Below are positions 5,025 through 35,333 of a stretch of 64,000 nucleotides of DNA, in pieces. Positions within the stretch are counted from its first letter, which is position 1. Each line of letters opens with the position of its first letter. Under the pieces are notes generated by a model. That model saw nothing but the letters and a program-made list of their open reading frames with translations. It made no database searches and was not told the origin of the DNA. The stretch is from assembly GCA_963847125.1 (NCBI GenBank), contig CAWJYM010000006.1:6602-70601 (forward strand), written 5' to 3'. Position numbers and translations under genes: made by a program. Source of the DNA: an uncultured Acidobacteriota bacterium (lineage in GTDB: Bacteria > Acidobacteriota > Vicinamibacteria > Vicinamibacterales > 2-12-FULL-66-21).

Positions 5025-5026
5025 GA

Positions 5027-6286: not shown

Positions 6287-6312
6287 GTCTGTCTCTCCTT
6301 GTCTGAGTGCAT

Positions 6313-7445
6313 TCATTGCGACGTTTGCCTTTTCCCACGCGCGGACACGGCGCCGGCCTTCGTCGAAGATCCGCTCGTAATTGCCCTTCCGGACTTTCAG
6401 GCTCGCGTCCGGCGTGAGCAGGCGCCAGACCGGCGCCCACATGTCGAACACGGCGAAATACGGCGCCGGACCGGCCGGCGCCACGGTGTCGGTTCCGAAG
6501 AGGAACCGGTCGGGATACTTGTTGAGCATCGCCGCCACGCGCTTGACGGACTCCGGCGAGGCCACCGCGTACTTGGCGACCTCGTCCCAGGAGATATCGA
6601 AGCTCACATGGGCGAGCGCCGGATCGGTGAGCATCGCCTCGACGATCCCGACGTGCGTGGGCGTGCGCTCGGCCGCCTCGGCCGACACCCGCACCGGATG
6701 GACGATCCGTCCGAGGCCGATGTGCGCCCAGATGATGGTCGTCTTCGGGTGGCGCTTGAGCAGCGCTTTCATCTGAGACAGGTACACCGGCTCCGCGTCG
6801 GTCTTCGCGAACGGCATGTCGATGTCGTTGTGGAGGATCACGACGAGGCCCGACTCTGCGGCGAAGTCGAGGATGCGGTCGAGCGCGGGATTGGTGAGGC
6901 TGGCCGTCTCGCCGGAGATCTTGGCCGAGACGAATTCCTTGTGGATGCTGAACTCGCCGATGCCGGAGAAGACGCCGGGAAACGCCTTCAGCACCCGCCG
7001 GATGTGATCGACGCCGTACATGTCGGCCGGGTTGAAGCCGGTGATCATCGGATCGAAGCGCGCCTGTTCCTCCTTCGAGAGCGAGCGATAGACGGCCGCG
7101 ATGTACGCGTCGGTGAACGAGTAGTAGTAGAGCGGCGCGTCGCTCTGCAGGTAGTAGGTCGGCGCGAAGTCGCCGGAATTGCCGTACGACCACTGCTGCT
7201 GCAAGCGGGATGCCGAAGAGCGTCGAGCGGCCGACGCGGTTCCCCATGATCTTGAGGAACTGACGCGGCTCGATGCCCTCCTGGATGTAGTTCGTCAGGT
7301 GGAAATGGGAGTCGTTGAAACCGTCGGCCGGTCCCTGTCCCTGCGCGCCGGTGGGACGCGCGAGAAACATCGCGGACAACGTCAGGCTCGCGAGGGCAGC
7401 CAGGAAGACGGCCGACCGGGACGACAGGTGGCGAAGGATCTTCAT
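6313..7445 (-). CDS. secreted metal-dependent amidohydrolase (TIM-barrel, Amidohydro_2-like), two frame breaks
   Basis: ATG 7445 gives MKILRHLSSRSAVFLAALASLTLSAMFLARPTGAQG..DSHFHLTNY. The frame switches near 7205 into ORF 5027..7204 (QQQWSYGNSGDF..HNDIDMP..WAHIGLG..FGTDTV). No in-frame stop precedes the next gene. Removing one A of the A4 run (6330..6333) gives a stop at 6313. Confidence 0.6.
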
Positions 7446-7452
7446 AGATCGA

Positions 7453-9031
7453 TCAGAAATTCATCTCGAGATTGATGTGGAAGACGGGTCCCTTGGACCC
7501 GACCGCGTACGGATAGGCGGTATATCCGACCGGAGACCCGTTCACGTACATCAACTCTCCGTTCACTCGCAGCCCCCGCTCCTTCATGAAGTACCAATTG
7601 GCCCCGCCCCGCACTTCCCAGGGGTCGCCGAAGTCGCCGTACACCTGCGAGGTGCCGAAGTACACCTGAAGGATCCTCGGAACGGCCATCGCGGAGGCCT
7701 GCAGCTGATAGCCGGTGTCGTCGATGTTCGGGATGCTGCCGGTGTTGAGGCCGGTGAAGTTCCTCAACCAGCGCCAGTACACCTCGCCTTCGAGCGCGAT
7801 GCCCTTGTACTTGACGCCGGCGTCGATGCTCACCATGTGGTAGTCCACCTCGTTGACGGTGATCCCCTGGCCGAAGAGGTCGGGCGTGAAGATGATGCTG
7901 CCGTCAGACAGACGGATCTGGCTGTTCTCGATCGACTCGGTGCCCGGCTGGCTCTGTCGCTCCTCGAGGCTGTGCGTGTAGTGCAGGCCGACCCGCGTGG
8001 CGACCTTCTGGTGATCGTCGTAGTCGCCGAACGTGTTCCACAGGCCGAACTCGCCGGTCGTGGGCAGCCACACCAGGGAGTACGATTGCGTATCGAACTT
8101 GTTGTCGAGTTGCGCGGCGCTCACGCCGAGCGTGCTCAGATTGTTCCCGACCATCACCTGGTACTTGAGCTCGGTCTGGAACTCGCCTTTCAGCCACACG
8201 CCACGTCGTGTACGAGCCCCTGAAGAACTCGTCGGCGATCAGGCGATTGTCGACGCCCAGCCAGTACGGGAACTGGCCCTCCGTACTCCGTACCGACGGC
8301 AGTGAAGTGATACCGGCACCGACGGCGATGTGCCTGTTGAAGCTGAACGTGAGGTTTCCCGCGCCGACGACCTGTGCCGGATCGCCCTGCGACGTATTCG
8401 CGGACCAGACATAGAGGTAGTAACGGAACTTCGGCGTGAGAAACCATCCGGAGAATGGCGCGAAGAACTTCTGCAACTGCACGTCCTGGCGCCGTTGCAC
8501 CGTTTTTGTGTTGCCGAACGCGTCGACATAGGTCTCGTCCAGATTTCTCTGGTTCAAGTACCTCGCGTAGCTGAAGAGCCGAAAATAGATCTGGCCCTTC
8601 TCGCCGTCGACGAGCAGGAACCCGACGTTGGGAATGTACTGAAGCGGCTTCGGCTTCGTCGTCTCCGGCTGTGCGGCCTGGCCGGTGATGAACTCGCCGC
8701 TGCAGCCGTCGGAGACCCAGATGTTCGTCTGATCGTAGCCCCACGTTCGTCCGAGCAGACACGCTGACTCGCCGGTCGAGCGCTGCAGCACGACGCCCGC
8801 CGACGTGTCGGCCGCGCAGTTCGTGCGTTCTCCGGGCTTCGACGCGCACAAAATGGAGACCGCCGCCAGCTGCGCGGCGGCCTGGGCCGTGCGGCGCAGC
8901 GCCGGCCCCGGTCGGCGGCGCCGACGTCTCTTGCGCGCTGATCGAAGAAGTCGAAAGCAGGAAAAAGGCGGCGGTGACGGCGCGCGTCTCTGAATCGCGC
9001 GTGGATTCCGGGCCAGTAGCAGTCTAATCAT
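7453..9031 (-). CDS. DUF3011-like Cys domain fused to a porin-type beta-barrel (frame breaks near 8203 and in the signal-peptide region)
   Basis: ORF 7904..9061 contains CASKPGERTNCAADTSAGVVLQRSTGESACLLGRTWGYDQTNIWVSDGCSGEF, which fits the DUF3011 pattern. This is followed by beta-strand-rich sequence that continues in ORF 7453..8199 and ends ..HINLEMNF. Confidence 0.5.
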
Positions 9032-9044
9032 CCGCTGTGCGCTC

Positions 9045-9060
9045 AGCACGCGCGGTGCCA
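9045..9060 (-). promoter_or_regulatory. sigma-54 (-24/-12) promoter candidate P1, reading leftward into the porin/Asn-Gln-Asp operon
   Basis: The minus strand reads TGGCACCGCGCGTGCT. GG (9059/9058) and GC (9047/9046) are 12 nt apart. The site is intergenic and correctly oriented. Confidence 0.6.
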
Positions 9061-9152
9061 CGCACAGTCAGCCGGACCAACGCCGTCCAAGTCGTTGACC
9101 GCGAACGAGTCCCGCGAGCGACCGAGCTACGGACTCACGGCTGGCCCTCCGA

Positions 9153-9180
9153 TATTCCGGAGCACCTCCGGTATAACGGC
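9153..9180. promoter_or_regulatory. 28-bp conserved site A (putative enhancer/UAS)
   Basis: TATTCCGGAGCACCTCCGGTATAACGGC. It shares ATTCCGG-N5-CTCCG-N6-CGG with sites at 19888, 31181 and 37339, and lies about 105 bp from both flanking -24 elements. Confidence 0.55.
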
Positions 9181-9268
9181 AGGTTCCACCCGCGCGAAGG
9201 GGCGTCCGGGATCGCGCAATCTTCCCGGCACCCAACCGGTTAGACTGTTCGCGTACCCGCGGTGCGTC

Positions 9269-9284
9269 TGGCATGTCGGGTGCT
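9269..9284 (+). promoter_or_regulatory. sigma-54 promoter candidate P2 for the lipoprotein-porin pair
   Basis: TGGCATGTCGGGTGCT, with GG at 9270/71 and GC at 9282/83. Predicted +1 is about 9295. AAGGAGAGAGG SD and ATG at 9321. Confidence 0.6.
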
Positions 9285-9320: not shown

Positions 9321-10029
9321 ATGAAAAGGATCGGTTCACTGGCGCTTGTCGCCGTGACCCTCGTGGCGTTCTCCGGTTCGGGCGCTGCCTGGACGCGGCA
9401 GCAGCCGACCGTGGCAGATCCCCAAGCCCGGCGTGCCGGAGATCATGACGCTCGAGGGGATGTACGTGCGCGCCGCGTACAACAACGAAGGCTATGCGAT
9501 CCTCGGCTATCGTCTCGCCAACCTGTCGATCGGCGAAGAGTGGATGCTTCTCGAGTTCGGCACGACGGTTCGCGATGGCGTGCCGAACTACACGCTGAAA
9601 CGCGACGCGCTGTCGATCGAGACGCCGGACGGCAAGACCATTCCGATGGCGACCAACGCGGAGTACCTGAAGGTGGACCTGCGGGCGATGCAGAATCGCG
9701 AGAAGGTCCAGCGCGACTCGATCAACTACTTTCCGCCGAGCGCGACACACGCGTGCCGCATCGGGTTCTTCGCCGAGGTGGGCTCGCGCCAGATGGCGTT
9801 CGACGAGGTCGAGCTCAGCAACACGCGCGGATGCGTCGGCCGGATCTTCTTCCAGGTGCCGGGTGGGATTCAGTACGGCCAGCACTGGCTCAACGTGAAG
9901 TTCGAGAAGAGTCTCGTCCGCGTGCCGTTCAGGATCCTGACGAAGGACGAAGAGAAGCTGCTGTCGAAGAACTACAAGGACATCCGGAAGCAGGTCCAGG
10001 ACGCCTTCAAGCCGAAGAAATCGACCTGA
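9321..10029 (+). CDS. secreted or lipoprotein of unknown function (frame break near 9420)
   Basis: ATG 9321 follows a strong SD and gives MKRIGSLALVAVTLVAFSGSGAAW. It continues in ORF 9433..10029 (..IPKPGVPEIMTLEGMYVRAAYNNEGYAILGY..). I recognise no family. Confidence 0.45.
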
Positions 10030-11614: not shown

Positions 11615-13324
11615 GGCGACGCGCTGCGGTCCGGCGGCCGCGTCGACGCCTTCCAGTCAGACACGACGAGATCGACGGTTTGTCCCGATTGGAGCGGACC
11701 GTACTCCTGTTCGAAGCCGATCCGCCGGAGCGCCTCTCGGACCTCGCCGTGCACTTCGGCCAACCGGAACTCGATGCTCGCGAGCGCGGAAGTGTTTTGT
11801 GCAGGTCGGCGAGGAGCTCGGCGCCGGCGAGATCGATTCTCGGCACCGCGCCCATGAAGAACACGACGAGCCGCACGGCATCCGTGCGCACGTTCAGAAG
11901 CTCGAACAGCCGCTCACGCACGAATTCCACGTTGAAGTACAGCAGCGCCGACTCGCAGCGGACCACGAGCACGCCGGGCGTGCGTTCGTTATCCGGCTGA
12001 CGCGAACGGTCGGCGTAATAGGTCGTTCCGGGGACGCGCGTCAGCTCGGTGACCCGCGGGCGTGAGGCCTGGCGCAGCAGGAGCACGATCGATATCGCGG
12101 CCCCAAGCAGTACGCCGTTGACCGGCCCGGATCCGAGCACGCCGACGAGCGCCGCGATCGCCACGAAGAACTCCCCGCGGCTGAATCGCCAGATGTGCCG
12201 CAGCGCGTGGACGTCGACGAGGCTCATGACGGCGGCGAGCACGATCGCCGCCAGGACCGGCTGCGGCAGGTTCCGCAGCAGTCCGGAGGCAAAGAGCACG
12301 ACGAACGAGCGTGAAGATCGGCGGCGACCAGGCCCGACAGCGGCGTGCGCGCGCCCTGCGCTCTCGTTGACGAGCGACTGCGACATGCCGCCGCTCACCG
12401 GAAACCCGCGGCCGATTCCCGCGGCGAGATTGGCCGCGCCGATCGCCAGCAGTTCCTGATTCGCGTCGAACCGATGGCCGTGCTTCTGGCCGAACATCCG
12501 GCCGATGGCGGACGACTCCACCGCGGCGAGGACGAACGCCGCCAGCGCGATGGGCAGGAGCGCGTTCAGCTCGTGCGGCTGACAGGACGGCACGCCGAGC
12601 GAGCGGCAGGCCCTGCGGCACATCGCCCAGCAACGACACGCCCCGTGCCTCGAGGCTCAGGAATCGCGCCGCCAGCATGCCGGCGACGACGACAAGGAAC
12701 GCCACCGGCCGGTTCTTGAGCCAGAGCTTGCCGGCAATGAGAACGGTCAACGCAACCGCTCCCACGAGCAAGGACACCTCGTGCGTGTCGCCCAGATGCG
12801 CGAGGAAGTAGCCCGAGCGCTCCCAGAAATCGCCGTGCGTGCCCTTGAAGCCAAACAGCTTGGGAAGCTGCGTGCTCGCCAGGTACAGCGCCAGTCCCGC
12901 CTTGAAGCCGACGAGCACGGTTTCGGAAAAAAAGCCGACGGCAGTGCCGGCGCGGACGAGCCACGCCACGAACGCAATGCCGCGACACGATCAGCGCCAC
13001 GCACGCAGCCAGGGCCGCGTGCCGCGCCGGATCGCCGGCGCTCAACTCCCCCACCGACGCGCCGACGAGCAATGACAGCGCCGACGTGACGGTCACGACG
13101 GTGTGCTTCGAGCTGCAGAACAGCCAGAAGATCAGCCCGGAAAAGAGGCACGCGTAGAGGCCCGCTTCGGGCGGAAGGCCGGCGAGCGACGCGTCGCCGA
13201 TCCCCGCGGGCAGGAGGTAGGCGGCAAGCGTGAGGCCGGCGATGAGATCGGGCCGCAGCCACTCGGCCCGATACTCAGGCAGCCACCGGAGGGCCGGCAG
13301 CGCCAGCGCGGTAGGTACGGTCAC
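11611..13324 (-). CDS. SulP-family anion transporter with C-terminal STAS domain (at least 6 frame breaks)
   Basis: Pieces lie in ORFs 12566..13324, 11989..12969 and 11517..12623. They include LPAGIGDASLAGLPPEAGLY, FFSETVLVGFKAGLALYLA, GGMSQSLVNESAGARTPLSGLV (the last only after frame correction), and the STAS part VLVVRCESALLYFNVEF...LAGAELLADLHKTL. Confidence 0.7.
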
Positions 13325-13734
13325 GTTCTCCGGCGCCGCTTGACGTGCAGCTGCGCCAGCGACCGCGCGAGCGAGGCGTTGACCGACGCGACCTCCTCAT
13401 CCGAGATCTTCTCGCGAAGTCGGGCTGCGGCGCGCTGGCGCGCCTCCTCCACTTTGGCTTCATCGACCTGCTCGGCGGGAATCGCCATGTCGGTGACGAT
13501 CGACACGCGGTCGGCGGTGATCTCCACGAGCCCTTCGCCCACCGCGAGCAACCGATCCTGCCCGTCCCTGGTGACGATGATCCCGCCCGGCACGATTTGC
13601 GTGATGAGCCTGACGTGGTGCGGATACACCCCGAGCTCTCCCTCGATGCCCGGCAGGGTGACCATGTGGACGTCCTCGGAGAAGACGGTCCCCTGCGGCG
13701 TGACGATTTCCAGCTTGAGGGTGTCCATACTCAT
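13321..13734 (-). CDS. atpC: F1 ATP synthase epsilon subunit
   Basis: Intact 137-aa ORF at the last position of the atp operon. Its stop overlaps the SulP GTG start (GTGA). Confidence 0.85.
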   Translation of the reverse strand: MSMDTLKLEIVTPQGTVFSEDVHMVTLPGIEGELGVYPHHVRLITQIVPGGIIVTRDGQDRLLAVGEGLVEITADRVSIVTDMAIPAEQVDEAKVEEARQRAAARLREKISDEEVASVNASLARSLAQLHVKRRRRT

Positions 13735-13876
13735 ATGGGGCTCCGCCCCAAACCCCGGCTCGGTCGCTCGCGCCCTTCGACGCTGCTCAGGGCGTCCCGA
13801 GCAACGTCGAGGGACGGGGGCCCCTACGCCCCGCTCCGCTCCCTCGCGAGGCGCGCCGTGCGCGCCTCAACCCGCC
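13735..13876. repeat. GC-rich REP-like intergenic element with internal hairpin
   Basis: Fills the whole atpD-atpC spacer. CCCTTCGACG..CGTCGAGGG inverted repeat. No ORF support. Confidence 0.4.
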
Positions 13877-15282
<1,406 letters not shown>

Positions 15283-15318
15283 GCTCCTACCTGTCTGCGA
15301 AATCTGAGAGTGTTCGGC

Positions 15319-16185
15319 TCATTCGGCCTGACCGCCCGCGATCTCCAGTAGTTCCTTCGTGATGTTGCCCTGCCGCAGCTTGTTGTATTCCAGCTTCAGC
15401 GCATCGATCAGGGTCTCCGCGCTGTCGGTGGCGTTCTTCATCGACACCATGCGCGCGCTCTGCTCGCTGGCCTTGGCATTCAGCAACACGTAATAGATGT
15501 AGATATTCAGGTAGTGTCCGAGGAGATAGCCCAGAAGCGCCTCGGGGCTGGGCTCGAACAGCGTTTCGGCCGTGTCGGCCGCCAGGGCCTCCTCGCGTTG
15601 CGCCCCGACGACCTTGACGCCTTTGATCTCCCCCACCGGCAGATACTCGATGGACACCGGCTCCTGCGTGAGCGTGTTGACGAAACGTGTCGTGACGATC
15701 CGGACCTGATCCACCTCCCCCTTCAGGAAGAGGTCGCGGGCGAAGCCGGCGATGGCTCTCGCTTCGGGAAACGTCGGCGAATCGCCGTAGGCGAACTCGG
15801 CGGCCAGATTCCGTCCGGTGCGGGCGACGAACTGCGCGGCTTTGCGGCCGGCCGTGATGAAGATCGTCGACGCCGGATCGAACTGCGCCGCGACGCGGAA
15901 GACGTTGGTGTTGAGCGCCCCGCAGAGGCCCTTGTCGGCCGCGATCAGGATGACCGCGCGCTTGCGGACCTCGCGCGCTTCCAGAAGCGGATGGGTGAAG
16001 TCGACGGTCCGCGTGGTCGCGCTGCGCTGGATGCGGTACAGGAGGCGCGCGAAGGGCTGGGTGGCAATCGCCGCCTGTTGCGCCTTGCGCATCTTCGACG
16101 CGGCCACCATCTGCATGGCTTTCGTGATCTGCGCGGTGCCGCTGATCGACTTGATCCGCCGGCGAAGCTCGCGGGGGCTGGCCAT
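15319..16185 (-). CDS. atpG: F1 ATP synthase gamma subunit
   Basis: Intact 288-aa ORF with ..[17 protein letters not shown].. and ..[12 protein letters not shown]. Confidence 0.9.
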
Positions 16186-16186
16186 C

Positions 16187-17721
<1,535 letters not shown>

Positions 17722-17759
17722 GTGTCTCTCACCTCACCGCGCTGCCGGACGGCTCGACC

Positions 17760-18152
17760 TCACAAGCGCGCCGCGAGAGCGGCCAGCCGCGCCCTCACGG
17801 TGCCGTCGTACACGTCGCTGCCGACCTTTATGCGCATGCCACCGATGAGCGCCGGGTTCTGGCCGAACGACGTTTCCAGCCCGCGGCCATAGACGCGCGT
17901 CAGGCCGGCCTGGACGGTTTCGCGCACGCTGCCGGCGAGCGGCGCCGCGGTCTCGACGACAGCCGTATGCCGATCGCGTTCGAGTCGCACCAGGCGCTGA
18001 AAGCCAGACAAGATGGGCAGAGCGCCTCGGCGCCTGGACTGGGCGACACCCCGCGCGACCTGCCGGACGCGGCCCTCGTCCAGCAGGCCGTCGACCAGAC
18101 ACAGCTGGAACAGTTGTCGCGCCGCGCGCCTGGCCTTTCGGCTCTGCTTCAT
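17760..18152 (-). CDS. atpH: F1 ATP synthase delta (OSCP) subunit, short form
   Basis: 130-aa ORF between atpF and atpA, with a C-terminus ..ALIGGMRIKVGSDVYDGTVRARL typical of delta. Confidence 0.7.
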   Translation of the reverse strand: MKQSRKARRAARQLFQLCLVDGLLDEGRVRQVARGVAQSRRRGALPILSGFQRLVRLERDRHTAVVETAAPLAGSVRETVQAGLTRVYGRGLETSFGQNPALIGGMRIKVGSDVYDGTVRARLAALAARL

Positions 18153-18154
18153 TC

Positions 18155-18664
18155 CTACGACGCCAGTTGCCTGGCCGTCTCCTCCGCGAGCCGGCGATGA
18201 TCCTCCGGCGTCAGGACCTTGCCCGTGACCGTCGCGGTCGTCTCCACGACGAGCCGGCCGACCTCGCGCTTCAACTCAGTGAGCATGTGGGCACGGTCCC
18301 GCTCGGTGGCTTCGCGCGCCCTGATCATGATCTGTTCGGCGGCGGCGATCGCCTTCTGAGTTTCCTGCGCCTGGACGCGGGCGGCCGCGGCGCGCGCTTC
18401 CTCGATCAGCCGCTTGCCCTCGGCATCGGCCTTCATCAGCACCGTCTGACGGTCCGCTTCGATGCGCGCCAGCTCCGCTTTGATCTTCTCGGCGTTGGCC
18501 AGACCGCTCGCGATCTGCTGCCGCCGCGCCTCCAGCATCCGGAGAATCGGTTTGTACGCGAGGAGGTACAGGACGCCGCACACGATCCCGAAGCTGACGA
18601 TCTGGGCACCCAGATGAGGCCAGTCGACGCCGAACGTGCGGGCGACCTGTTCGATCTGTCCCAT
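18155..18664 (-). CDS. atpF: Fo ATP synthase b subunit
   Basis: 169 aa. One N-terminal TM segment, then a long charged helix (..EARRQQIASGLANAEKIKAELARIEADRQ..). Confidence 0.8.
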   Translation of the reverse strand: MGQIEQVARTFGVDWPHLGAQIVSFGIVCGVLYLLAYKPILRMLEARRQQIASGLANAEKIKAELARIEADRQTVLMKADAEGKRLIEEARAAAARVQAQETQKAIAAAEQIMIRAREATERDRAHMLTELKREVGRLVVETTATVTGKVLTPEDHRRLAEETARQLAS

Positions 18665-18673
18665 GCTGACCGC

Positions 18674-18865
18674 CTACTGCTGCACGAGGAACAGGGCGTA
18701 GAACACAATCGCCTCGGCGAAGGCGATGGCCAGAATGGACTGGACCATGATCTTCGTGGACGCGCCGGGATTCCGGCCGACCGCTATCGACGCGCCCTGG
18801 CCGATCAACCCCACGCCGATGGCCGCGCCAAGAGCCGCGAGGCCGACATGAATGCTTCCGATCAT
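18674..18865 (-). CDS. atpE: Fo ATP synthase c subunit
   Basis: 63-aa hairpin protein with an RNP loop and the carboxylate in ..AIAFAEAIVFYALF. Confidence 0.85.
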   Translation of the reverse strand: MIGSIHVGLAALGAAIGVGLIGQGASIAVGRNPGASTKIMVQSILAIAFAEAIVFYALFLVQQ

Positions 18866-18890
18866 CTGAGTTGTCCTTTCTGTCCGGCGT

Positions 18891-19745
18891 TCAGCCGTGC
18901 GCGGCCGCGGCCCCGGCTTCCTCGTGATGCTGACAAATCAACAGCGTGAAGACAGCGGTCAGCAACATGAAGACCATCGCCTGCACCAGACCCACCAGCA
19001 GCTCCATGAAATAGAACGGTATCGGCAGCAACCACCCGAGACCCGGCACGATCGTGGCCATGGCCTCGAGCATGTTCTCGCCTGCGAAGATGTTCCCGTA
19101 GAGACGAAAGCTCAGTGAGACGGGGCGGAACAGGATCGACACGATCTCCAGGCAACCGGCGGCGAAGAACACGACGACCATCAGGACCTTCAAGAACCCC
19201 GTCGTCTCTCCCTTCGGCGCAAAGAGCTCCTTGACGATGCCGCGCGGGCCGGTTTCCTGGAGCGCCCAGATGATCCACCACGCGAAGAACACCAGCGCCA
19301 TCGCCAGCGTCAGGTTGAGATCGGCGTTCGCTCCCCGAAAAAGGGGCTGTTCGATGACGAACCGGTGAGCGGTCTGGTGTCCCCACCCGATCGTTCCAAC
19401 GCCAGGGATGAGGCCCATCCAGTTCGCCGCGAGGATGAAAATGAAGGTGGTCGCGAAGAACCAGAAGGTCCGCTCGACCAGGTGCTTGCCGATGATGCTC
19501 TCCAGGAGGCCGTACAGGCTCTCCACCAGCCACTCCAGGAAGTTCTGAGCGCCCTTTGGAACCTGGGTCATCTTGCGTGTCGCGATTTGGGCAAAGACGA
19601 TCAGCCCAAGTGCCACGATCCACGTGACGACCATGGAGTTCGTGATGGGAAAGCCGAATGGACGCCCGATCTCGACCGCCTTCTGCGACAAGCCGTGTCC
19701 GACCGGTTCGGCGAGGCCGAAGCAGACGATGTCGAGGATGTTCAT
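18891..19745 (-). CDS. atpB: Fo ATP synthase a subunit
   Basis: 284-aa polytopic ORF with the stator arginine region ..SLSFRLYGNIFAGE.. Confidence 0.85.
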   Translation of the reverse strand: MNILDIVCFGLAEPVGHGLSQKAVEIGRPFGFPITNSMVVTWIVALGLIVFAQIATRKMTQVPKGAQNFLEWLVESLYGLLESIIGKHLVERTFWFFATTFIFILAANWMGLIPGVGTIGWGHQTAHRFVIEQPLFRGANADLNLTLAMALVFFAWWIIWALQETGPRGIVKELFAPKGETTGFLKVLMVVVFFAAGCLEIVSILFRPVSLSFRLYGNIFAGENMLEAMATIVPGLGWLLPIPFYFMELLVGLVQAMVFMLLTAVFTLLICQHHEEAGAAAAHG

Positions 19746-19768
19746 GCGAGTGCCGCGTTCTCGCCGGC

Positions 19769-19784
19769 AGCACGGCGCGTGCCA
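19769..19784 (-). promoter_or_regulatory. sigma-54 promoter candidate P3 upstream of atpB
   Basis: The minus strand reads TGGCACGCGCCGTGCT, with GG at 19783/82 and GC at 19771/70. Predicted +1 is about 19758, 13 nt before the atpB ATG. Confidence 0.5.
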
Positions 19785-19887
19785 CGGGCTGGCCGATCGA
19801 CACGGATCCAGCGAGCCCGCGGATCGGCTGGTACAACGGAGACTTCGCGTCGCGGGTCCAGGGTCCTATCGACGGTCCGGCCTCCGG

Positions 19888-19915
19888 TATTCCGGACGTT
19901 CTCCGCGATGCCGGA
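19888..19915. promoter_or_regulatory. 28-bp conserved site B (putative enhancer/UAS)
   Basis: TATTCCGGACGTTCTCCGCGATGCCGGA. It lies 119 bp from the P3 -24 and 99 bp from the P4 -24. Confidence 0.55.
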
Positions 19916-19998
19916 GGGTGCCCGCCGCCGTTTGAATCACGACCGGCCGATTCGCCGCACTTGCGGGACTCCGGAGGCCTTCGAGCAGGGTGCCGCCT

Positions 19999-20014
19999 TG
20001 GTACGTCTGCTGCA
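19999..20014 (+). promoter_or_regulatory. sigma-54 promoter candidate P4
   Basis: TGGTACGTCTGCTGCA, with GG at 20000/01 and GC at 20012/13. GAGGAG SD and ATG 20084 lie downstream. Confidence 0.5.
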
Positions 20015-20083
20015 ATCGACTCGGCCCGCCCGCCTTCGCCTTCGGCTTCGGCGCGGCAAGCACTTGCGCTGCTGAGGAGTGAG

Positions 20084-20674
20084 ATGGCCATGGCTACGAT
20101 GACTATTGGACAGGCGACGATTCACGGCGTGCTTTCCTTCACGGTGTTCATGGCAGCCGCTTCGACAGCGCAGCCACAGACAGCCGTCGAAACCTTCACG
20201 GCAACGGCGGCGGTCAAGACCGCCGCGGCCGCGACGGCCAGCGCGCCCGTGACGCTGACCGTCGACCGGAAGATGTCGCAGGCCGAAGCGGACACGCTCG
20301 TCGCCGCCTTCAAGGCGGGCGGGGTCGCGGGACTGCGCAAGGCGCTCGTCGGCGTTGCTCCGACGGGCTCGGTGCGGCTCGGCGACGGGACTCCGACGCC
20401 TACGCGCCTGACCATCGAGCGGCCGACCGACAGAGGGCGGCTCCTCACCATGGTGACCGACAAGCCAATCCTGTTTCTGGGCGCCGGCATGGCTGGCGCC
20501 AAGCCGAAGGAGGGCTACGACTTCGCCATCGTCGACATCGAGGTCGACGCCCAGGGCAAGGGATCCGGCACGCTGGCCCCCGCGGCAAAGGTCACCGTCA
20601 AGGAAGGCGTGTTCGTCGTGGATGATTACGCCTCGGAGGTCGTCCGGCTGACCGGGGTCAGCAGGGTGAAGTAG
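20084..20674 (+). CDS. secreted protein of unknown function
   Basis: The in-frame ATG within ORF 19658..20674 follows GAGGAG and gives the signal-like MAMATMTIGQATIHGVLSFTVFMAAASTAQ. I recognise no family. Confidence 0.45.
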   Translation: MAMATMTIGQATIHGVLSFTVFMAAASTAQPQTAVETFTATAAVKTAAAATASAPVTLTVDRKMSQAEADTLVAAFKAGGVAGLRKALVGVAPTGSVRLGDGTPTPTRLTIERPTDRGRLLTMVTDKPILFLGAGMAGAKPKEGYDFAIVDIEVDAQGKGSGTLAPAAKVTVKEGVFVVDDYASEVVRLTGVSRVK

Positions 20675-20684: not shown

Positions 20685-22640
20685 TTGACTGTGGCGAGTC
20701 GAAGCATCGATCTGGCGGAGACGTCTCGGCTGGCAATCGAGGCGTTGCCGAGCGGCGTTCTGATCGCAGACGTCAACGGCACGATTGCGCTCGTCAATCG
20801 CGAGCTGGAACGACAGTTCGGCTACACGCGCGCGGAGCTCGTCGGACAGAACGTCGATCTGGTGCTGCCCGAGGCCTCGAACCTGATTCACGCCGCGCAC
20901 CCGGCAGGTTTCGAGCACGCCCCCTCGGCGCCGATCATGGGAGCCGGCCGTGAGCGTTTCGGCCGCCGCAAGGACGGTTCGCAGATCCAGGTGGAGATCG
21001 GGCTCAGACCGGTCCAGCTCGCGGATAGCTTCTTCGTGCTCGCTTCCGTCGTGGACACCACGCAGCGCGACGAGCTGGAACGCGTCCGCCAGGCCGCCTT
21101 CGAGGAACAGCTCGAGTTCGAGCGGTTCATCGCCGAGCTGTCAGGTCAGTTCATCAATCTCGACGCCGACCGGATCGACGAAGCGATCCGGAGTGGTCTC
21201 GGCCGCATCTGCGCGCAGCTCGGTCTGGACCGAGGCAGCTTCTACCGGATAGGACCGGATGGCGAGCTCTTCGTCGATTGCGTCGGCTGGGTGGCGCCCG
21301 GCGTGCCACCGATCGACGGGCCCATTCCTGCGAAGGAACGGCTGCCCTGGGCGCTCGGACGGCTCCGTGCGGGGGAGGTCGTGTCCTTTTCGACGCGCGA
21401 CGACGTGCCGAGCGACGTCGATCGCGCCAGCTACGCGGCGCTCGGCATCCGGTCGGCACTGGTGATACCCCTGTCTGTCGACGACCGCATCGAAGGCGCA
21501 GTGGGCTTCAACGCCGTACGCGAGGACCGGCCGTGGCCGCCGGAGGTCGTGCACCGCCTCGAGGTCGTCGCGGGCGTGTTCGCGCAGCTCCTGGCGCGGC
21601 AGCGGCGTGACGAGGCGCTGCGCGCCGCGACGGCCGAAGCGCAGCGTCTGAAGGAGCAATTACAGTCGGAGAACGTGTACCTACGGAGGGAGGCGCGGGA
21701 ACGTCTGGGGCCCAGCCGCGCCGTGGGCCAGGGCGCCGCCGTGCGGTTAGTGCTGGAGCAGATCGAGCAGGTCGCGGCGACCGATTCGACGGTCCTGCTG
21801 CTGGGGGAGACCGGGACGGGAAAGGAGCTCTTTGCGACGCAGATCCACGAGCTGAGCGAACGTCACGGCCGGGCGATGGTCAGGGTCAACTGCGCGGCGA
21901 TCCCGGCGACGCTGATCGAGAGCGAGCTGTTCGGGCGCGAGAAGGGGGCTTTCACAGGCGCGCTGGCGCGGCAGGTCGGTCGCTTCGAGCTGGCGGATCA
22001 CTCGACGATCTTCCTCGATGAAATCGGCGATCTGCCCCCCGACGTGCAGGTGAAGCTGCTGCGCGTGCTCGAGGAACGACAGATCGAGCGGCTGGGCAGT
22101 CCGCGGCCGATCGCGGTGGATACCCGGATCATCGCCGCCACGCACCGGAACCTTGAGCAGCGGATCGCGGAGGGCCTCTTCCGGGAAGATCTCTACTACC
22201 GGCTGAGCGTGTTTCCCATTCACGTGCCGCCTTTGCGCGAGCGCGTCGAGGACATTCCGCTGCTCGTCTGGCGGTTCGTGGAGGAATTCTCGAAGGCGTT
22301 CGGCAAGCGCGTGGACTCCATCGACAAGGACAACCTCGTGGCCCTGCAGCAATACGCGTGGCCCGGGAACATCCGGGAGTTACGCAACGTCGTGGAGCGC
22401 GCGATGATCGGCGCGACGGGCCCGCGGGTGACCATCGCGCTCCCGCAGCCGACGCCGGCAGCGAGCCGCCGCAGCGGGAAGCTCGTCGACGTCGAGCGAG
22501 AGCACATCCGGAGCGTGCTCGAGGGCACGGGCTGGAGGATTCGAGGCCCCGGCGGGGCGGCCGAGCGGCTCGGAATGAAGCCCACGACCCTCGAGACGCG
22601 AATGGCAAAACTCGGGCTCAGGCGCCCCGGCCACCGCTAG
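20685..22640 (+). CDS. sigma-54-dependent transcriptional activator, PAS-GAF-AAA+-HTH (bEBP-1)
   Basis: Intact 651 aa. Contains GETGTGKE Walker A, the GAFTGA loop (EKGAFTGA), and the C-terminal [26 protein letters not shown]. Confidence 0.85.
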   Translation: MTVASRSIDLAETSRLAIEALPSGVLIADVNGTIALVNRELERQFGYTRAELVGQNVDLVLPEASNLIHAAHPAGFEHAPSAPIMGAGRERFGRRKDGSQIQVEIGLRPVQLADSFFVLASVVDTTQRDELERVRQAAFEEQLEFERFIAELSGQFINLDADRIDEAIRSGLGRICAQLGLDRGSFYRIGPDGELFVDCVGWVAPGVPPIDGPIPAKERLPWALGRLRAGEVVSFSTRDDVPSDVDRASYAALGIRSALVIPLSVDDRIEGAVGFNAVREDRPWPPEVVHRLEVVAGVFAQLLARQRRDEALRAATAEAQRLKEQLQSENVYLRREARERLGPSRAVGQGAAVRLVLEQIEQVAATDSTVLLLGETGTGKELFATQIHELSERHGRAMVRVNCAAIPATLIESELFGREKGAFTGALARQVGRFELADHSTIFLDEIGDLPPDVQVKLLRVLEERQIERLGSPRPIAVDTRIIAATHRNLEQRIAEGLFREDLYYRLSVFPIHVPPLRERVEDIPLLVWRFVEEFSKAFGKRVDSIDKDNLVALQQYAWPGNIRELRNVVERAMIGATGPRVTIALPQPTPAASRRSGKLVDVEREHIRSVLEGTGWRIRGPGGAAERLGMKPTTLETRMAKLGLRRPGHR

Positions 22641-22663: not shown

Positions 22664-22697
22664 CTCCGGCATGCCGTGGCCCCTCTGCGATACCGGG
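22664..22697. promoter_or_regulatory. degenerate half-site copy of the 28-bp motif (site E)
   Basis: CTCCGGCATGCCG at 22664 and GATACCGG at 22689. Only the right half of the motif is recognisable. It lies about 115 bp upstream of P8. Confidence 0.25.
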
Positions 22698-22795
22698 GGG
22701 GCGGATGCGCCAACGCGGTCTCCCGCGATCGTGCGATCACCGCCAAGGTGTTCATTCGATGGCCGCTAGGCGACCTGCGACCGAACTCGTCCACT

Positions 22796-22811
22796 TGGAA
22801 CGGCTGGTGCT
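22796..22811 (+). promoter_or_regulatory. sigma-54 promoter candidate P8
   Basis: TGGAACGGCTGGTGCT, with GG at 22797/98 and GC at 22809/10. Predicted +1 is about 22822, 2 nt before ATG 22824, which would make the mRNA leaderless. Confidence 0.4.
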
Positions 22812-22823
22812 TGGACACGCGGC

Positions 22824-23165
22824 ATGGTCCGGCTGACCGTCGCGCTCAGTGCAGCGTCCGCGCGCGGGACTCAGGATCTCCTCGAGGCGCTTCGTTTCCT
22901 GGAGTTGAGCACGCGGCTGGAGCGCGGCTGCCTGGGATGTTCCGCCTGGATCGATCCCGACTCGACGGTGCGTCACGTGGAGGAGTGGGCCACCGAACCG
23001 GACATGCGCCGGCGCGTGCGCTCGGACCGGTTCACCTCGCTCCTGGCCGTCGTGGAGTCCGCCCGCGAAGCCCAGGTGCAGTTCGACTTCGTCAAGGAGA
23101 CGCGCGGGCTCGACTACGTTGAGGAAGCCCGCCGCGATGGCCCAATGGAGAGTAGACAAGGATGA
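22824..23165 (+). CDS. small alpha+beta (ABM/Dabb-like) protein
   Basis: 113-aa ORF whose stop overlaps the ppk2 ATG (ATGA). The family call comes from size and pattern only. Confidence 0.35.
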   Translation: MVRLTVALSAASARGTQDLLEALRFLELSTRLERGCLGCSAWIDPDSTVRHVEEWATEPDMRRRVRSDRFTSLLAVVESAREAQVQFDFVKETRGLDYVEEARRDGPMESRQG

Positions 23166-23936
23166 AGCGAGCGAAGTACGAGAAAGCGCTGGGCAAGCTG
23201 CAGGTGCGGCTGTGCCATCTCCAGCGATGGGTCAAGGAGAAGGGCCTGCGCGTGGTCATCGTGCTCGAAGGACGCGACGGGGCAGGCAAGGGAGGGACGA
23301 TTCGCGCGATCACCGAGCGTCTCAGCCCGCGCGTGTTCAGGGTCGTCGCCTTACCGGCCCCCTCGGACCGCGAGAAGAGCCAGATGTACATGCAGCGCTA
23401 CATGCAACATTTTCCCGGCGGCCGGCGAGGTGGTCATCTTCGATCGGAGTTGGTACAACCGCGCCGGCGTCGAGTACGTGATGGGTTTCTGCTCGCCAGA
23501 GCAGCACAAGCGGTTCCTGCAGCTCTGCCCCGAGATGGAGAAGTACATGGTCGATGGCGGCGTCATCCTGATTAAGCTCTGGCTGGAAGTGAGCAACGAC
23601 GAGCAGAAGCGCCGCTTCGAGGCCCGCATCACAGATCCGCTCCGGCAGTGGAAGCTCAGCGTGATGGATTTGCCCTCGCGGAAGCGCTGGTACGACTATT
23701 CACGTGCGCGCGACATCATGTTGAAGCGGACCGACACCCGATTCGCACCCTGGCACATCGTCCGCACGGACGACAAACGGGCGGCGCGCCTGAATACGAT
23801 CGAGCACCTGCTCTCGAGGATTCCGCACAAGAAACTCCGCCAGGAGAAGATCAAGCTCCCCGCACGATCGTCGAAGCGCGCGTACGACGACGACGCGTCG
23901 ATCGCGCGGCGGCGCTTCGTGCGCGAGCGCTATTGA
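23162..23936 (+). CDS. ppk2: polyphosphate kinase 2 (frame break near 23416)
   Basis: ORFs 23162..23575 and 23430..23936 join. Motifs are VIVLEGRDGAGKGGTI, ..[24 protein letters not shown].. (after frame correction) and ..FAPWHIVRTDDKRAARLN. Confidence 0.85.
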
Positions 23937-23949
23937 GGGTGTGCAGGTC

Positions 23950-26148
23950 ATGAAGGGACTCACGATCGCCGTCAGCGCGGCTCTTGCGTGGGCCGGCGCG
24001 GCTCTGTTGCTGCCGGACGGACCGGCAGCGCATGAAGCGCTCGCGTCGCAAGCCGCCGCGCAAGCCGCGAAGACGACGCCGTCAAAGGCGGCGCCGAAGC
24101 CGGAGGAGCTCGATCGGCTGCTCGCGCCCGTCGCGCTGTATCCCGACGCGCTTCTGACGCAGATCCTGCTCTGCACGGCGACCCCCGGTAAGGTCGCCGC
24201 CCTCAACGAGTGGCTGGCGAGCCAGACCGCGAAGGGTACCGATCTCCAGGACGCCGCGACGAAATCCGGATTCGAGCCGAGCTTCGTTGCGCTCGTCCTC
24301 TTTCCGCAGGTTGTCGAGACGATGGCGAGCCAGATGGACTGGACGACCCGGATCGGCCAGGCGTTCGCGGCGGATCGATCCGCCGTGTTCGCCAGCATCC
24401 AGCGGTTGAGGACGCAGGCCAAGAACGTAGGGACTCTCAAGACCACGTCGCAACAGGAAGTCGAAACCCGGACGACGTCGTCAGGCGAGCAGGTGATCGT
24501 CATCGAGCCTGCCAACCCTCAGATTGTCTACGTGCCGCAATACAACCCGCAGGTCGTGTACACGCAGCCGGCGTCGACGACGGTCGTCATCCAGGAGGAT
24601 GACGACAGCGCCGAAGCGGTTGCGGCCGGCCTCATCGGATTCACGGCGGGGATCGCGATTGGCGCCGCGATCGACAACGATTATTACTACGGTCCTCACG
24701 GATTCTACGGCGGCGGCTACATGTACAACGACGCGTGGGACGACTACTACGACGCGCGCGAGGATGCCAGGGAAGACTGGCAGGATCACCGCGAGGACCT
24801 GAACGAGGACCGAAGCGAGCGTCGCGAAGACGTGGCCGACGAGCGCGGTGAGCGGGCGGGTACGACGCAGGAGCAACGTACCGAACGCCAGCAGACCCGG
24901 CAGGAAAACCCGCAGACGCAGGCGCAGCGCGAGCAGCGGAAGACCGAAGCGCAGGGCAAGGCGCAGCAGGCCCGGAGCTCGGGCGCCAGCGCGAGCGGCG
25001 CGAGCACGAGTCAGGCATCCCGGGGGCACAGCGGCAATAAGGCAGCCACGCAGCGCAGCTCCGGATCGGACGCGTTCTCCGGCTACTCGAGTGGAAAATC
25101 CACGCGCGCGTCCAGCTCGCGCGGCCAGAGCAGCCGGAGCAGCTCGCGCGGCGGCGGCGGCGGCGGCGGCGGCGGTGACGCGGTGACATCGAGCCGAGTG
25201 GTGAAGGACGTGACGAGAATCGCAAAGACGGCGTGCGGCGTGATCGCGCTGGCGTGCGCGTGCGTGGCGGTGGCGGCGGCCGTCTCCTGCAGCTCTTCTG
25301 CCCCGGGCCCGCGGACGTTCGGGACGCCGGAAGAGGCGGTGCGTGCGTTGAACGAAGTCGTCAAGGCCGGGAAGATGGATGACCTGCTGGCCATCTTCGG
25401 CCCGGACGGCAAGGAGTTGGCCGGGTCGTCGGATCCGGCAACCGGCAGCAGGAACCGCAAGGTGTTCACGGTCGCCGTCGCCGAGGGGTGGAAGCTGGTC
25501 GATCAGGGTACCGACCGCAAAGTACTCGTCGTCGGCAACGAAGAATGGCCGTTCCCGGTCCCTCTCGTGCGAGAGGCGAACGGCTGGCGATTCGACACGG
25601 CGGCAGGCAAGGAAGAAGTGATCGCCCGGCGCATCGGGCGCAACGAGCTCGCGGTGATGCAGATCTGCCGGACCTACGTCGCCGCGCAGAGGCTCTACGC
25701 CCGTTCCGGTCACGATGGAAAGCGCGCGGGGTTGTACGCGACGACGTTCCGGAGCGATCGCGGAAAACAAAACGGCCTGTATTGGCCGGCGGTGCGAGGT
25801 CAGAAGCGCAGCCCGCTCGGAGATCTCGTGGCCCAGGCGGCCGAGGAAGGCCGACCGGTGGGCGCGGATCGTCAGCCCTCGCCCTTTCACGGGTACTACT
25901 TCAAGATCCTGACCGGCCAGGGCGCCGCAGCGACTGGCGGCGCCAGGAATTATGTGGCAGCCGGAGACATGTCCGGCGGGTTCGCGCTCGTCGCGTGGCC
26001 TGCCCAGTACGACGTGACCGGAGTCATGACCTTCATCGTCAATCAGGACGGCGGCGTTCGCGAGAAGGACCTCGGACCTGGAACCGATGCCGCCGCCAGG
26101 GCGATGACGCTGTACGACCCCGATTCGTCCTGGGCCACGGTGGAGTAA
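23950..26148 (+). CDS. DUF3300 protein and DUF2950 lipoprotein read as one ORF (probably two genes joined by an indel in a (GGC)8 tract)
   Basis: N-terminal part: LDRLLAPVALYPDALLTQILLCTATPGKVAALNEWL (DUF3300) followed by a long acidic/S-G-R tail. A lipoprotein-type signal VVKDVTRIAKTACGVIALACACVAVAAAVSC begins at about 25198. Then the DUF2950-like part ..NELAVMQICRTYVAAQRLYA..GYYFKILTGQG..GGFALVAWPAQYDVTGVMTFIVNQDG. Confidence 0.6.
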   Translation: MKGLTIAVSAALAWAGAALLLPDGPAAHEALASQAAAQAAKTTPSKAAPKPEELDRLLAPVALYPDALLTQILLCTATPGKVAALNEWLASQTAKGTDLQDAATKSGFEPSFVALVLFPQVVETMASQMDWTTRIGQAFAADRSAVFASIQRLRTQAKNVGTLKTTSQQEVETRTTSSGEQVIVIEPANPQIVYVPQYNPQVVYTQPASTTVVIQEDDDSAEAVAAGLIGFTAGIAIGAAIDNDYYYGPHGFYGGGYMYNDAWDDYYDAREDAREDWQDHREDLNEDRSERREDVADERGERAGTTQEQRTERQQTRQENPQTQAQREQRKTEAQGKAQQARSSGASASGASTSQASRGHSGNKAATQRSSGSDAFSGYSSGKSTRASSSRGQSSRSSSRGGGGGGGGGDAVTSSRVVKDVTRIAKTACGVIALACACVAVAAAVSCSSSAPGPRTFGTPEEAVRALNEVVKAGKMDDLLAIFGPDGKELAGSSDPATGSRNRKVFTVAVAEGWKLVDQGTDRKVLVVGNEEWPFPVPLVREANGWRFDTAAGKEEVIARRIGRNELAVMQICRTYVAAQRLYARSGHDGKRAGLYATTFRSDRGKQNGLYWPAVRGQKRSPLGDLVAQAAEEGRPVGADRQPSPFHGYYFKILTGQGAAATGGARNYVAAGDMSGGFALVAWPAQYDVTGVMTFIVNQDGGVREKDLGPGTDAAARAMTLYDPDSSWATVE

Positions 26149-27778
26149 GTGACCACCCACGTGTTGGGTGCCTGTGTCGTCGCGCTGGTTCTGTCCTCGC
26201 TCGACGCGCGCTCACAAACGATGCCGGGTGCCGCTCCGGCCGCGGCGCCAACCCAACCCGAACCACCGAAAGACGTCCTCGGCCGCAGCACACCTCGAGG
26301 GACGGTCCTCGGGTTTCTCAGCGCCGCGCGCCGGGGAGAGGATGCACTGGCGGGTCAGTACCTGGACGCTCCGTCCGGTGGAGAGGCCGCGGACACTCTC
26401 GCCCACGAGCTGTTCATCGTTCTCGACGCCCGGCTGCCCGCTCGACTGCCGCAACTGAGCGACGCTCCCGAGGGCTCCCGTTCGAACCCACTGACACCCA
26501 ACCAGGAGCTGGTCGGAACGGTCCAGGGCTCCGCCGGCGCCGTGGACATCGTGCTCGAACGAGTCGAACGTGGAAGCACCGGTCCGATCTGGCTCTTCTC
26601 ACGCAGGACGCTCGAATCCGTTCCGAGGCTGTACCAAGAGATCGCGGTCCTCTGGAAGGATGCGCCCGTTCCCAGGTTCCTGACGAGTACGCGCGTAGGA
26701 GGCGTCCGGCTCTTCGAGTGGCTCGCCGTCATTCTCGGTCTGCCACTGTTGTATCTGGCGACCGTGCTCTTGAACAGGATGCTCACGCCGCTGATGGGAC
26801 TCGCGTGGCGTCGCATGTTCAAGGGATCGGATCTCTTCACCCGCAGCGTTCTGCCGGCGCCGGCCCGACTGCTGATCCTGGCGCTGGCGGGTCGCTGGCT
26901 GCTGGCCCGACTGCCTCTGTCGCTGCTCGGTCCGGCAGTTCTGGACCAATCTGGCAATCCTTCTGACGATTGTGGCGGTCGTCTGGCTCCTGTTTCTCCT
27001 GAACGGTGAGGTCGAACGCTACATTCGCCGGCGCTTTCCGCGCACCAGCTCCGCTGCCGCGACCTCGCTGCTGCGCGTCGGTCGCAGGGTCGTCGACGTC
27101 CTGATCGTGTTCGCAGCCGTGCTCGTCGTGCTTCGTCGTTTCGGCGTGGACCCGACGCCGGTGCTGGCGGGACTCGGTGTGGGAGGCATCGCCGTAGCGC
27201 TTGCGGCGCAGAAGACACTGGAGAACGTGATCGCCGGCGCGTCCCTGATCTTCGACCAGGCGGTGCGTGTCGGAGACTTTCTGAAGGTGGGGGACGTTCA
27301 GGGTACCGTCGAACACATCGGCCTGCGCTCGACACGGATCCGTACTCTCGATCGGACCGTCGTGAGCATCCCCAACAGTCAGATCGCGAACGCGAGCCTC
27401 GAGACGCTCTCAGTGCGCGACAAGTTCTGGTTTCATCCGGTCGTGGGGCTCGTGTACGAGACGACGTCGGACCAGCTGCGCGCCGTCGTCGACGGCATCC
27501 GTCAGATGCTCGACGACCACCCCTCCGTCGCCCACGAATCGGTGCGCGTCCGGTTCATCCACCTCGGTTCGTTTTCTCTCGACGTGGACGTCTTCGCGTA
27601 CGTCTTCGCCCGCGACTGGAACCACTTCCTCGAGATTCAGGAGCAGCTGCTCTTCGCCGTCACGGAGATCGTCGACAAGGCCGGCACCCAGATCGCGTTC
27701 CCGTCTCAGACGATGTACGTCTCCAACGAACAGGCCGCCGCCCCTGTCGCGGAATCCATCCCGACGGCGACGCGATAA
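26149..27778 (+). CDS. MscS-family mechanosensitive channel with large N-terminal periplasmic/TM extension (frame break near 26935)
   Basis: ORFs 26149..27009 and 26972..27778 join. MscS core: GLGVGGIAVALAAQKTLENVIAGASLIFDQAVRVGDFLKVGDVQGTVEHIGLRSTRIRTLDRTVVSIPNS. Confidence 0.8.
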
Positions 27779-30500: not shown

Positions 30501-31052
30501 CTAGCGAGCCTCATCGGCGGCGAACTTCGCCTCGAGGGCCGTGAGATCGGCGCGAAGGACCTCGAGCTCGGACGGCGGAACGCCTCGCGCCTCGAGCCGC
30601 TCCAGCCTGTCGCGAAGGCTCGCCACGCCTTCTCCCGGCCCAGGCCCGTGCTCTTTGAGTGCGTCCGGATGGACGTCGGTCCCGTACGCCATCTTGTACA
30701 TGACCGGCTTCGAATAGGCCCACAGCCACGCGAGCGGCCAGAGGAGGCCTCCGAACACCAGCGAGAGCAGGCACAACGTCCGGATGGCCTCGAACTGGGG
30801 ATGGTGCCGCTTGTGCGCGATCTTCTCCGGAAGGACGTGGACCATCCAGAAGAGCACGATCAGCACGGCCGGCACGAGGAAGATCACAAGCACCGCGATG
30901 ATCGTGGCGAGCGTGTCCTCGAGTTCAGGCGACAGCAGCGACGCGCGCGCGTCGTCCGGAGCGGCCAGCGAGAAGACCAGGGCTGCCGCCCCGACGATCG
31001 CCCGGGCGGCTCTCGGCCCCTTCAAACTGCCGAATCCAAGGGTGGAGCGCAT
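30501..31052 (-). CDS. DUF3302 (YiaW-like) inner-membrane protein with N-terminal extension
   Basis: The core ..VLVIFLVPAVLIVLFWMVHVLPEKIAHKRHHPQFEAIRTLCLLSLVFGGLLWPLAWLWAY is colinear with E. coli YiaW as I remember it. Start chosen at ATG 31052. Confidence 0.65.
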   Translation of the reverse strand: MRSTLGFGSLKGPRAARAIVGAAALVFSLAAPDDARASLLSPELEDTLATIIAVLVIFLVPAVLIVLFWMVHVLPEKIAHKRHHPQFEAIRTLCLLSLVFGGLLWPLAWLWAYSKPVMYKMAYGTDVHPDALKEHGPGPGEGVASLRDRLERLEARGVPPSELEVLRADLTALEAKFAADEAR

Positions 31053-31067
31053 GACCGGTACCCGAAC

Positions 31068-31083
31068 AGCAGCCGCCGTGCCA
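31068..31083 (-). promoter_or_regulatory. sigma-54 promoter candidate P5 for DUF3302-HlyD-OMF
   Basis: The minus strand reads TGGCACGGCGGCTGCT, with GG at 31082/81 and GC at 31070/69. Predicted +1 is about 31057, 5 nt before ATG 31052. Confidence 0.6.
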
Positions 31084-31180
31084 GCGTTGCCGTCGGCCGT
31101 CGGCGTGTCCGTAAACCGATGACGCGCCGAGAGTAGACGCGCCAGCACACCCCTCTCCGTCGGCGCGCGTCAACCTCCGC

Positions 31181-31208
31181 TATTCCGGGTATGCTCCGGG
31201 ATACCGGA
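31181..31208. promoter_or_regulatory. 28-bp conserved site C (putative enhancer/UAS)
   Basis: TATTCCGGGTATGCTCCGGGATACCGGA, which contains the 14-bp palindrome TCCGGGATACCGGA. It lies 113 bp from the P5 -24, immediately upstream of bEBP-2. Confidence 0.55.
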
Positions 31209-31278
31209 GCCCAATTTCATTCGGCGCAATCGGGTGATATACCTAAGCCACATCTTCCATCCAAGGGAAGTCCCACTA

Positions 31279-33350: not shown

Positions 33351-35333
<1,983 letters not shown>

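Follow-up and report, generated by a model that had tools for sequence, protein, structure and literature searches.

The F1Fo ATP synthase operon carried by the 64-kb stretch of DNA analysed here (the window) is preceded by a conserved -24/-12 element, which is very probably a functional, enhancer-dependent sigma-54 promoter from which atpBEFHAGDC would be transcribed. The original prediction, made from the letters of the window, was that this operon has such a promoter; the proposal now draws support from the conservation of the element among relatives, from a tandem activator site (site B) located between it and a divergent element of the same type, and from a scan of the region that returned no sigma-70-like site.

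The ATP synthase operon and its -24/-12 element

The window has a GC content of 66%, and its best relatives are Vicinamibacterales-like Acidobacteriota MAGs, one of which (locus L019) encodes an AtpB that is 98% identical to that of the window. The operon occupies 13321..19745 on the minus strand, where Pfam matches and three-frame translation identify atpB (18891-19745), atpE (18674-18865), atpF (18155-18664), atpH (17760-18152), atpA (16187-17721), atpG (15319-16185), atpD (13877-15282) and atpC (13321-13734). The gene order a-c-b-delta-alpha-gamma-beta-epsilon, with delta present and without atpQ or atpR, is that of a canonical F-type enzyme, not an N-type enzyme. Two frameshifts interrupt each of atpA and atpD, and others break the polyphosphate kinase 2 (PPK2) gene, an exported-protein gene at a locus we call site A (9322-10029) and the C-terminus of one of the activators described below (bEBP-3). 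Because the alpha (510-514 aa) and beta (467 aa) subunits are intact in relatives, including L019, these breaks appear to reflect indel errors in a long-read assembly, not pseudogenes. With so many indel errors in the window, the absolute spacings reported below may be off by one base. The delta subunit (17760-18152) is short: its 130-133 residues correspond to positions 69-172 of the OSCP profile, and most of the N-terminal domain is missing. A short delta is found in every acidobacterial locus with a listed delta ORF (L011, L019, L029, L058, L073), including two that are not Vicinamibacterales-like (L058, without a sigma-54 element, and L073, with a distant one).

Read on the minus strand (19784..19769), the promoter element, P_atp, is TGGCACGCGCCGTGCT, the reverse complement of AGCACGGCGCGTGCCA at 19769..19784 on the plus strand. 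Its GG (19782-19783) and GC (19770-19771) dinucleotides have the exact GG-N10-GC spacing, and the element agrees with TGGCACG-N4-TTGCW at 11 of 12 positions, its -12 box being GTGCT where the consensus has TTGCW. The gap between P_atp and the atpB ATG (19745, minus strand) is 23 nt; the 24 nt of the original prediction, whose sequence for the element we recovered exactly, is the count to the A of the ATG. Transcription is predicted to start at approximately 19758, for a leader of about 13 nt, and a clear Shine-Dalgarno sequence was not found in the window within this predicted leader.

Pattern counts place such elements well outside chance expectation. The stringent form TGGCAC-N6-TGCT matches the window three times (9045-9060, 19769-19784 and 31068-31083, all on the minus strand) where 0.06 matches are expected, and at least three copies were reached in 0 of 100 shuffles, bearing out an earlier rough estimate that three exact copies were far more than the fraction of a chance hit expected. 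The looser form TGGYAY-N6-TGCW yields five matches in the window against 0.35 expected, all of them intergenic and each facing into genes.

Conservation of GG-N10-GC upstream of atpB had been suggested as a check, and we evaluated it in a comparison set of 80 loci encoding AtpB relatives (one genome per species, with two locus pairs from the same MAG). Of these 80 species-level relatives, 49, hereafter the motif-positive loci, have TGGYAY-N5-NTGC at most 450 bp upstream of atpB, with a variable spacer and unconserved flanks; L067, which belongs to the closed chromosome OY970193, is among those without it. Among 29 aligned P_atp variants, an alignment that leaves out the weaker variant of L080, positions T1, G2, G3, A5, T13, G14 and C15 are invariant. 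The central N4 varies among relatives (GGCC, CCCC, AGCC, GACT, CGGT and others), and close relatives share no common conserved sequence in the 30 nt before P_atp or the roughly 20 nt after it. The distance from P_atp to the start codon is 18-26 nt in relatives, and where AtpB carries an N-terminal extension P_atp shifts along with the new start codon; these extensions, seen in L004, L014, L031, L033, L037, L043, L044, L068 and L073, comprise 50-80 residues and resemble a signal or membrane anchor. Across 805 kb of loci, 67 of the 73 matches to TGGYAY-N6-TGCW fall at the atp or the divergent promoter position. The lower-GC loci of Terriglobia and Blastocatellia were searched for a sigma-54 element before atpB and gave none, so P_atp is clade-specific.

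A shared enhancer, its divergent genes and related modules

Intergenic alignment and a tandem-site search delineate an enhancer, or UAS, at 19882..19916 (no strand), the site B already mentioned, with the sequence CTCCGGTATTCCGGAC gtt CTCCGCGATGCCGGAG. It consists of two tandem 16-bp palindromes, CTCCG-N6-CGGAG, spaced 19 bp centre to centre, which is the classic layout for what would be two activator dimers. A site between the two promoters had been predicted, and its existence as a tandem palindrome is confirmed; the distances assigned to it, 119 and 99 bp, need adjusting, because the boundaries differ slightly and its centre lies 116.5 bp from the GG of P_atp and 101.5 bp from the divergent GG.

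The intergenic alignment, comprising the window and 31 relatives (32 sequences), contains only three conserved blocks: the two -24/-12 elements and, between them, the central 35-bp enhancer. The enhancer has 0-2 mismatches in all 32 aligned regions, with the GG of P_atp at a median distance of 113.5 bp and that of the divergent element at 103.5 bp, and a tandem palindrome conserved at a conserved distance in this way argues for the idea of one activator site common to both promoters. Tandem sites with at most 3 mismatches number 51 in the 805 kb of loci, with 41 of them just upstream of atpB, versus 0 in shuffled loci, and such a site is present in 40 of the 49 motif-positive loci. Loci that lack the exported-protein and activator genes described below retain the enhancer, 82-116 bp upstream of the atp promoter, and it therefore belongs to atp and not to the divergent unit alone. 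Enhancer-promoter distances fall into classes of about 114, 104, 93, 84 and 70 bp that look periodic, and helical phasing is only suggestive, the statistics (P = 0.13 for atp, 0.002 for the divergent side) being not robust and confounded by relatedness. The intergenic region of L019 (L019:4750-5000) is 79 bp shorter than that of the window, with both enhancer-promoter distances at 69.5 bp versus 101.5 and 116.5 bp; the shortening may stem from a true deletion or from the assembly.

The divergent sigma-54 element, P_sec (TGGTACGTCTGCTGCA, 19999..20014, plus strand), lies upstream of genes for an exported protein and the activator bEBP-1, 69 nt before an ATG at 20084 that is preceded by a GAGGAG ribosome-binding site. 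Its form YGGYAY-N5-NTGCW, where the last five positions are mostly CTGCA, is kept in 32 of 32 relatives that have the exported-protein gene, so that the divergent element originally proposed at this position holds in sequence and in conservation alike. The first gene after it (20084..20674, plus strand) encodes the exported protein, a member of a family of about 191 aa that has no Pfam or NCBIfam match and whose 1061 homologues are all named hypothetical. Its AF2 model (pLDDT 76) gave no PDB fold match (best E = 0.3), and comparison with the exported protein of site A rejected a paralogous relationship between the two. Within the leader of this gene, 33 nt (20026-20058) are matched by very abundant metatranscriptome contigs (depth 125-348) that contain small insertions and do not resemble the window to either side; the match is probably a chance resemblance to an abundant RNA.

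The gene that follows, bEBP-1 (20685..22640, plus strand), encodes a sigma-54 activator of PAS-GAF-AAA+-HTH_8 architecture (Pfam PF00158, 1.4e-68; AAA_lid_14; HTH_8). Its AAA+ (Sigma54_activat) domain contains the GAFTGA loop and its C-terminus an HTH, the features that define an enhancer-binding protein, and an orthologue adjoins atp in 23 relatives. We consider bEBP-1 a candidate for the cognate activator of the site B enhancer. Assignment as an FhlA, NifA or NorR equivalog was rejected on NCBIfam bit scores (369, 356 and 332, versus cut-offs of 830, 529 and 476, respectively).

Immediately beyond bEBP-1 is a second module of the same kind, in which a variant tandem enhancer (site B2, 22664..22698, no strand; CTCCGGCATGCCGTGG ccc CTCTGCGATACCGGGG) lies 116.5 bp from another sigma-54 element, P_ppk2 (TGGAACGGCTGGTGCT, 22796..22811, plus strand), itself 12 nt before an ATG at 22824. 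This module is kept in about 30 species, with a spacing of 103-120 bp. It faces, on the plus strand, an ABM-like gene (22824-23165), for which the Pfam match is weak (2e-4), and the PPK2 gene (23162-23936, one frameshift), which has Pfam matches of 8e-31 and 5e-54 and an NCBIfam PPK2 match. The mRNA from P_ppk2 is predicted to be leaderless; the gap of 12-13 nt from this element to the ABM start is kept in about 20 species. Three sigma-54 elements of the window (22796-22824, 9031-9060 and 31050-31083) end only 12-15 nt before a start codon, and a canonical transcription start at these would produce mRNAs with no leader or with one of 2-5 nt. Downstream of PPK2 (23941-27778) are genes for a DUF3300-DUF2950 fusion protein (735 aa) and then a MscS-type mechanosensitive channel.

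Gene content divergent from atp tracks the presence of the promoter motif. Of the 49 motif-positive loci, 42 have PPK2 divergent from atp, versus 3 of the 31 motif-negative loci, and none of the latter carries the ABM-like gene or encodes the exported protein or the activator. Where a relative has neither the exported-protein gene nor the activator gene, the place directly divergent from atp is taken by PPK2 or ABM-PPK2, with a -24/-12 element of its own. The conserved divergent partner of atp across the clade is polyphosphate kinase 2.

Besides B, the design of tandem enhancer plus sigma-54 promoter recurs in the window at sites A, B2 and C. Site A combines a leftward promoter (TGGCACCGCGCGTGCT, 9045-9060, minus strand), a tandem enhancer (9147-9181) and a rightward promoter (TGGCATGTCGGGTGCT, 9269-9284, plus strand), facing a DUF3011/porin operon and the exported-protein gene mentioned above, respectively. 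The genes beyond its leftward promoter (1142-9031, minus strand) encode DUF3011/porin-like, amidohydrolase, glutaminase, asparaginase and Asp-Al_Ex/TrkA-C transporter proteins, and may form one amino-acid or acid-stress unit of the same regulon. At site C, a promoter (TGGCACGGCGGCTGCT, 31068-31083, minus strand) with its tandem enhancer (31175-31209) faces DUF3302-HlyD-OMF efflux genes. Adjacent to site C are two paralogues of bEBP-1, bEBP-2 (31234-33207, plus strand, 66% identity) and bEBP-3 (33351-35471, plus strand, 59% identity), bringing the PAS-GAF-AAA+-HTH activators with GAFTGA encoded in the window to three. bEBP-1 and bEBP-2 have near-identical helix-turn-helices, a comparison that bEBP-3 does not allow because its reading frame is broken at that region. 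A possible further enhancer, ACACGGCATTCCGGAG gaa CTCCGGTCCAGCGGAG, occurs at 37333-37367, flanked by weak -24/-12 candidates (37268-37283, minus strand; 37409-37424, plus strand) at shorter distances than those seen around the other enhancers. A search for rpoN within the 64-kb window did not find it. From these recurring sequences we propose that the atp operon is a member of a regulon that would have at least four enhancers in the window and include PPK2, the porin operon and the efflux pump.

Alternative readings of the region upstream of atpB

The alternative that survives best accepts the sigma-54 promoter as real and makes it supplementary, with basal atp transcription supplied by an unrecognised sigma-A promoter in the same intergenic region and the enhancer adding to it only in certain conditions. 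We regard this as rather unlikely, although ATP synthase is constitutive as a rule and degenerate sigma-A promoters need not appear as conserved blocks. The conservation of only two -24/-12 elements and one enhancer in the alignment of 32 regions speaks against it, and read-through into atp is impossible because the upstream gene is divergent. An additional sigma-70 promoter had been named as something to look for, and our scan of 19700..20130 gave none (0 sites); this result must be tempered by its reliance on E. coli-type hexamers, as acidobacterial -35/-10 preferences are uncharacterised and a promoter of that kind could be missed. RNA contigs also stop short of the region upstream of the atpB ATG. 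In four soil metatranscriptomes we found contigs 88-99% like atpB, short, of low depth and derived from relatives; four of these, from four different runs, end at 19727-19748, and none continues upstream of the atpB start. These ends fit a short leader and lend it weak support. Runs found with L008 were rejected as RNA data, since their even coverage indicates DNA.

Alternatively, a dimeric regulator might use P_atp chiefly as a palindromic operator, GCAYG-N3-CGTGC, in which case the resemblance to a promoter would be incidental or the two functions would overlap. The dyad is kept in 95.9% of cells, including three compensatory cases (L035, L079), a level matched by only 2 of 500 shuffles, and the CG at positions 11-12 varies less at atp than in the remaining promoters of the window. 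Against this, the invariant T1, G2 and T/A16 are not part of the dyad and show the asymmetry that sigma-54 predicts; 5 of 29 variants break the pair 7-11; and the five remaining elements of the window have GG-N10-GC without the dyad. An operator would moreover leave both the fixed enhancer distance of about 114 bp and the gene-facing orientation unexplained, and we consider this reading improbable.

It is very improbable that the atp mRNA has a longer 5' UTR in which the element serves as an RNA hairpin or leader motif for attenuation or for control of translation: a 5-bp stem is possible and its C/T variation is wobble-compatible, but the stem is too short for stability, the fold is no better than that of shuffles (z = +0.53), no Rfam family matches upstream of atpB, no upstream promoter was found to transcribe the element, and the RNA contigs stop at the ATG.

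Proposed mechanism and relation to known systems

Taking P_atp as a sigma-54 promoter, the arrangement of elements suggests the following scheme. RNA polymerase containing sigma-54 would sit on the GG (-24) and GC (-12) of P_atp as a closed complex unable to open alone. Dimers of a PAS-GAF-AAA+-HTH activator, which may be the neighbouring bEBP-1, its paralogues bEBP-2 and bEBP-3, or both, would occupy the two CTCCG-N6-CGGAG palindromes at 19882..19916. A signal sensed by the PAS and GAF domains would lead to formation of an activator hexamer, which could contact one or the other divergent promoter through a DNA loop of approximately 100-117 bp and, by hydrolysing ATP, bring about promoter opening. 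The leftward output would be the ATP synthase operon, on a transcript with a leader of only some 13 nt, and the rightward output the exported protein and bEBP-1, amounting to positive autoregulation; in relatives without these two genes the rightward unit would be PPK2 directly.

A stronger form of this scheme, to which we give tentative credence at most, is that Vicinamibacteria transcribe their only F1Fo ATP synthase solely from this sigma-54 promoter, under an enhancer held in common with the divergent gene or genes. If so, PAS-GAF enhancer-binding proteins would turn production of ATP synthase on or off, both sigma-54 and the activator would be essential, and very abundant, slow-growing soil bacteria would possess a molecular switch by which they enter and leave low-energy or dormant states. 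Were the atp operon placed behind sigma-54 throughout dozens of species in a dominant lineage of soil bacteria, their core energy conversion would be signal-gated and all-or-none. PPK2 offers an alternative route to nucleotide triphosphates, and the related enhancers suggest a coordinated regulon of energy and phosphate. The scheme also offers a testable explanation for a possible essential role of sigma-54 in some bacteria, and a handle on the energy states of oligotrophic Acidobacteria.

The mechanism itself is textbook. Sigma-54 promoters support essentially no transcription without an activator, and are known for nitrogen assimilation, flagella and stress responses. In enterobacteria, the glnAp2 promoter controlled by NtrC, an AAA+ activator with a GAFTGA loop and a Fis-type HTH, has a GG-N10-GC element with two tandem dyads approximately 100-140 bp upstream and is strictly activator-dependent. 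The atp site resembles it in having GG-N10-GC, tandem dyads and a GAFTGA-containing AAA+ activator, and differs in its target (an F1Fo operon here, nitrogen assimilation there), in the sensors of the activator (PAS and GAF in bEBP-1, a receiver domain in NtrC) and in its CTCCG-N6-CGGAG sites, by which one enhancer would serve two divergent promoters. E. coli FhlA (divergent hyc/hyp) and NorR (norR-norVW) are GAF activators that work from divergent intergenic sites on sigma-54 promoters. The best NCBIfam similarities of bEBP-1 are to FhlA, NifA and NorR; unlike these it falls below the equivalog cut-offs, carries an extra N-terminal PAS domain and lies beside other targets.

What is new is the target, an ATP synthase operon, for which we found no published precedent: the open literature yielded no sigma-54-dependent F1Fo ATP synthase operon, the comparative sigma-54 study of Francke et al. 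does not mention ATP synthase, and ATP synthase is absent from the main text of the paper on the Geobacter RpoN regulon. RpoN is essential in Geobacter sulfurreducens and in Myxococcus xanthus (PMC2725144), for reasons that are unexplained in Myxococcus. Geobacter presents a likeness at the level of the regulon, in that its sigma-54 acts on genes of core energy or central metabolism and is hence indispensable (PMC2725144).

The nearest precedent comes from Corynebacterium glutamicum, where SigH controls atpBEFHAGDC from just upstream of atpB (PMC3917460). SigH differs in belonging to the sigma-70 family and needing neither an enhancer nor an ATP-driven activator, and C. glutamicum has no shared divergent enhancer; the likeness lies in a canonical atpBEFHAGDC operon placed under the control of an alternative sigma factor (PMC3917460).
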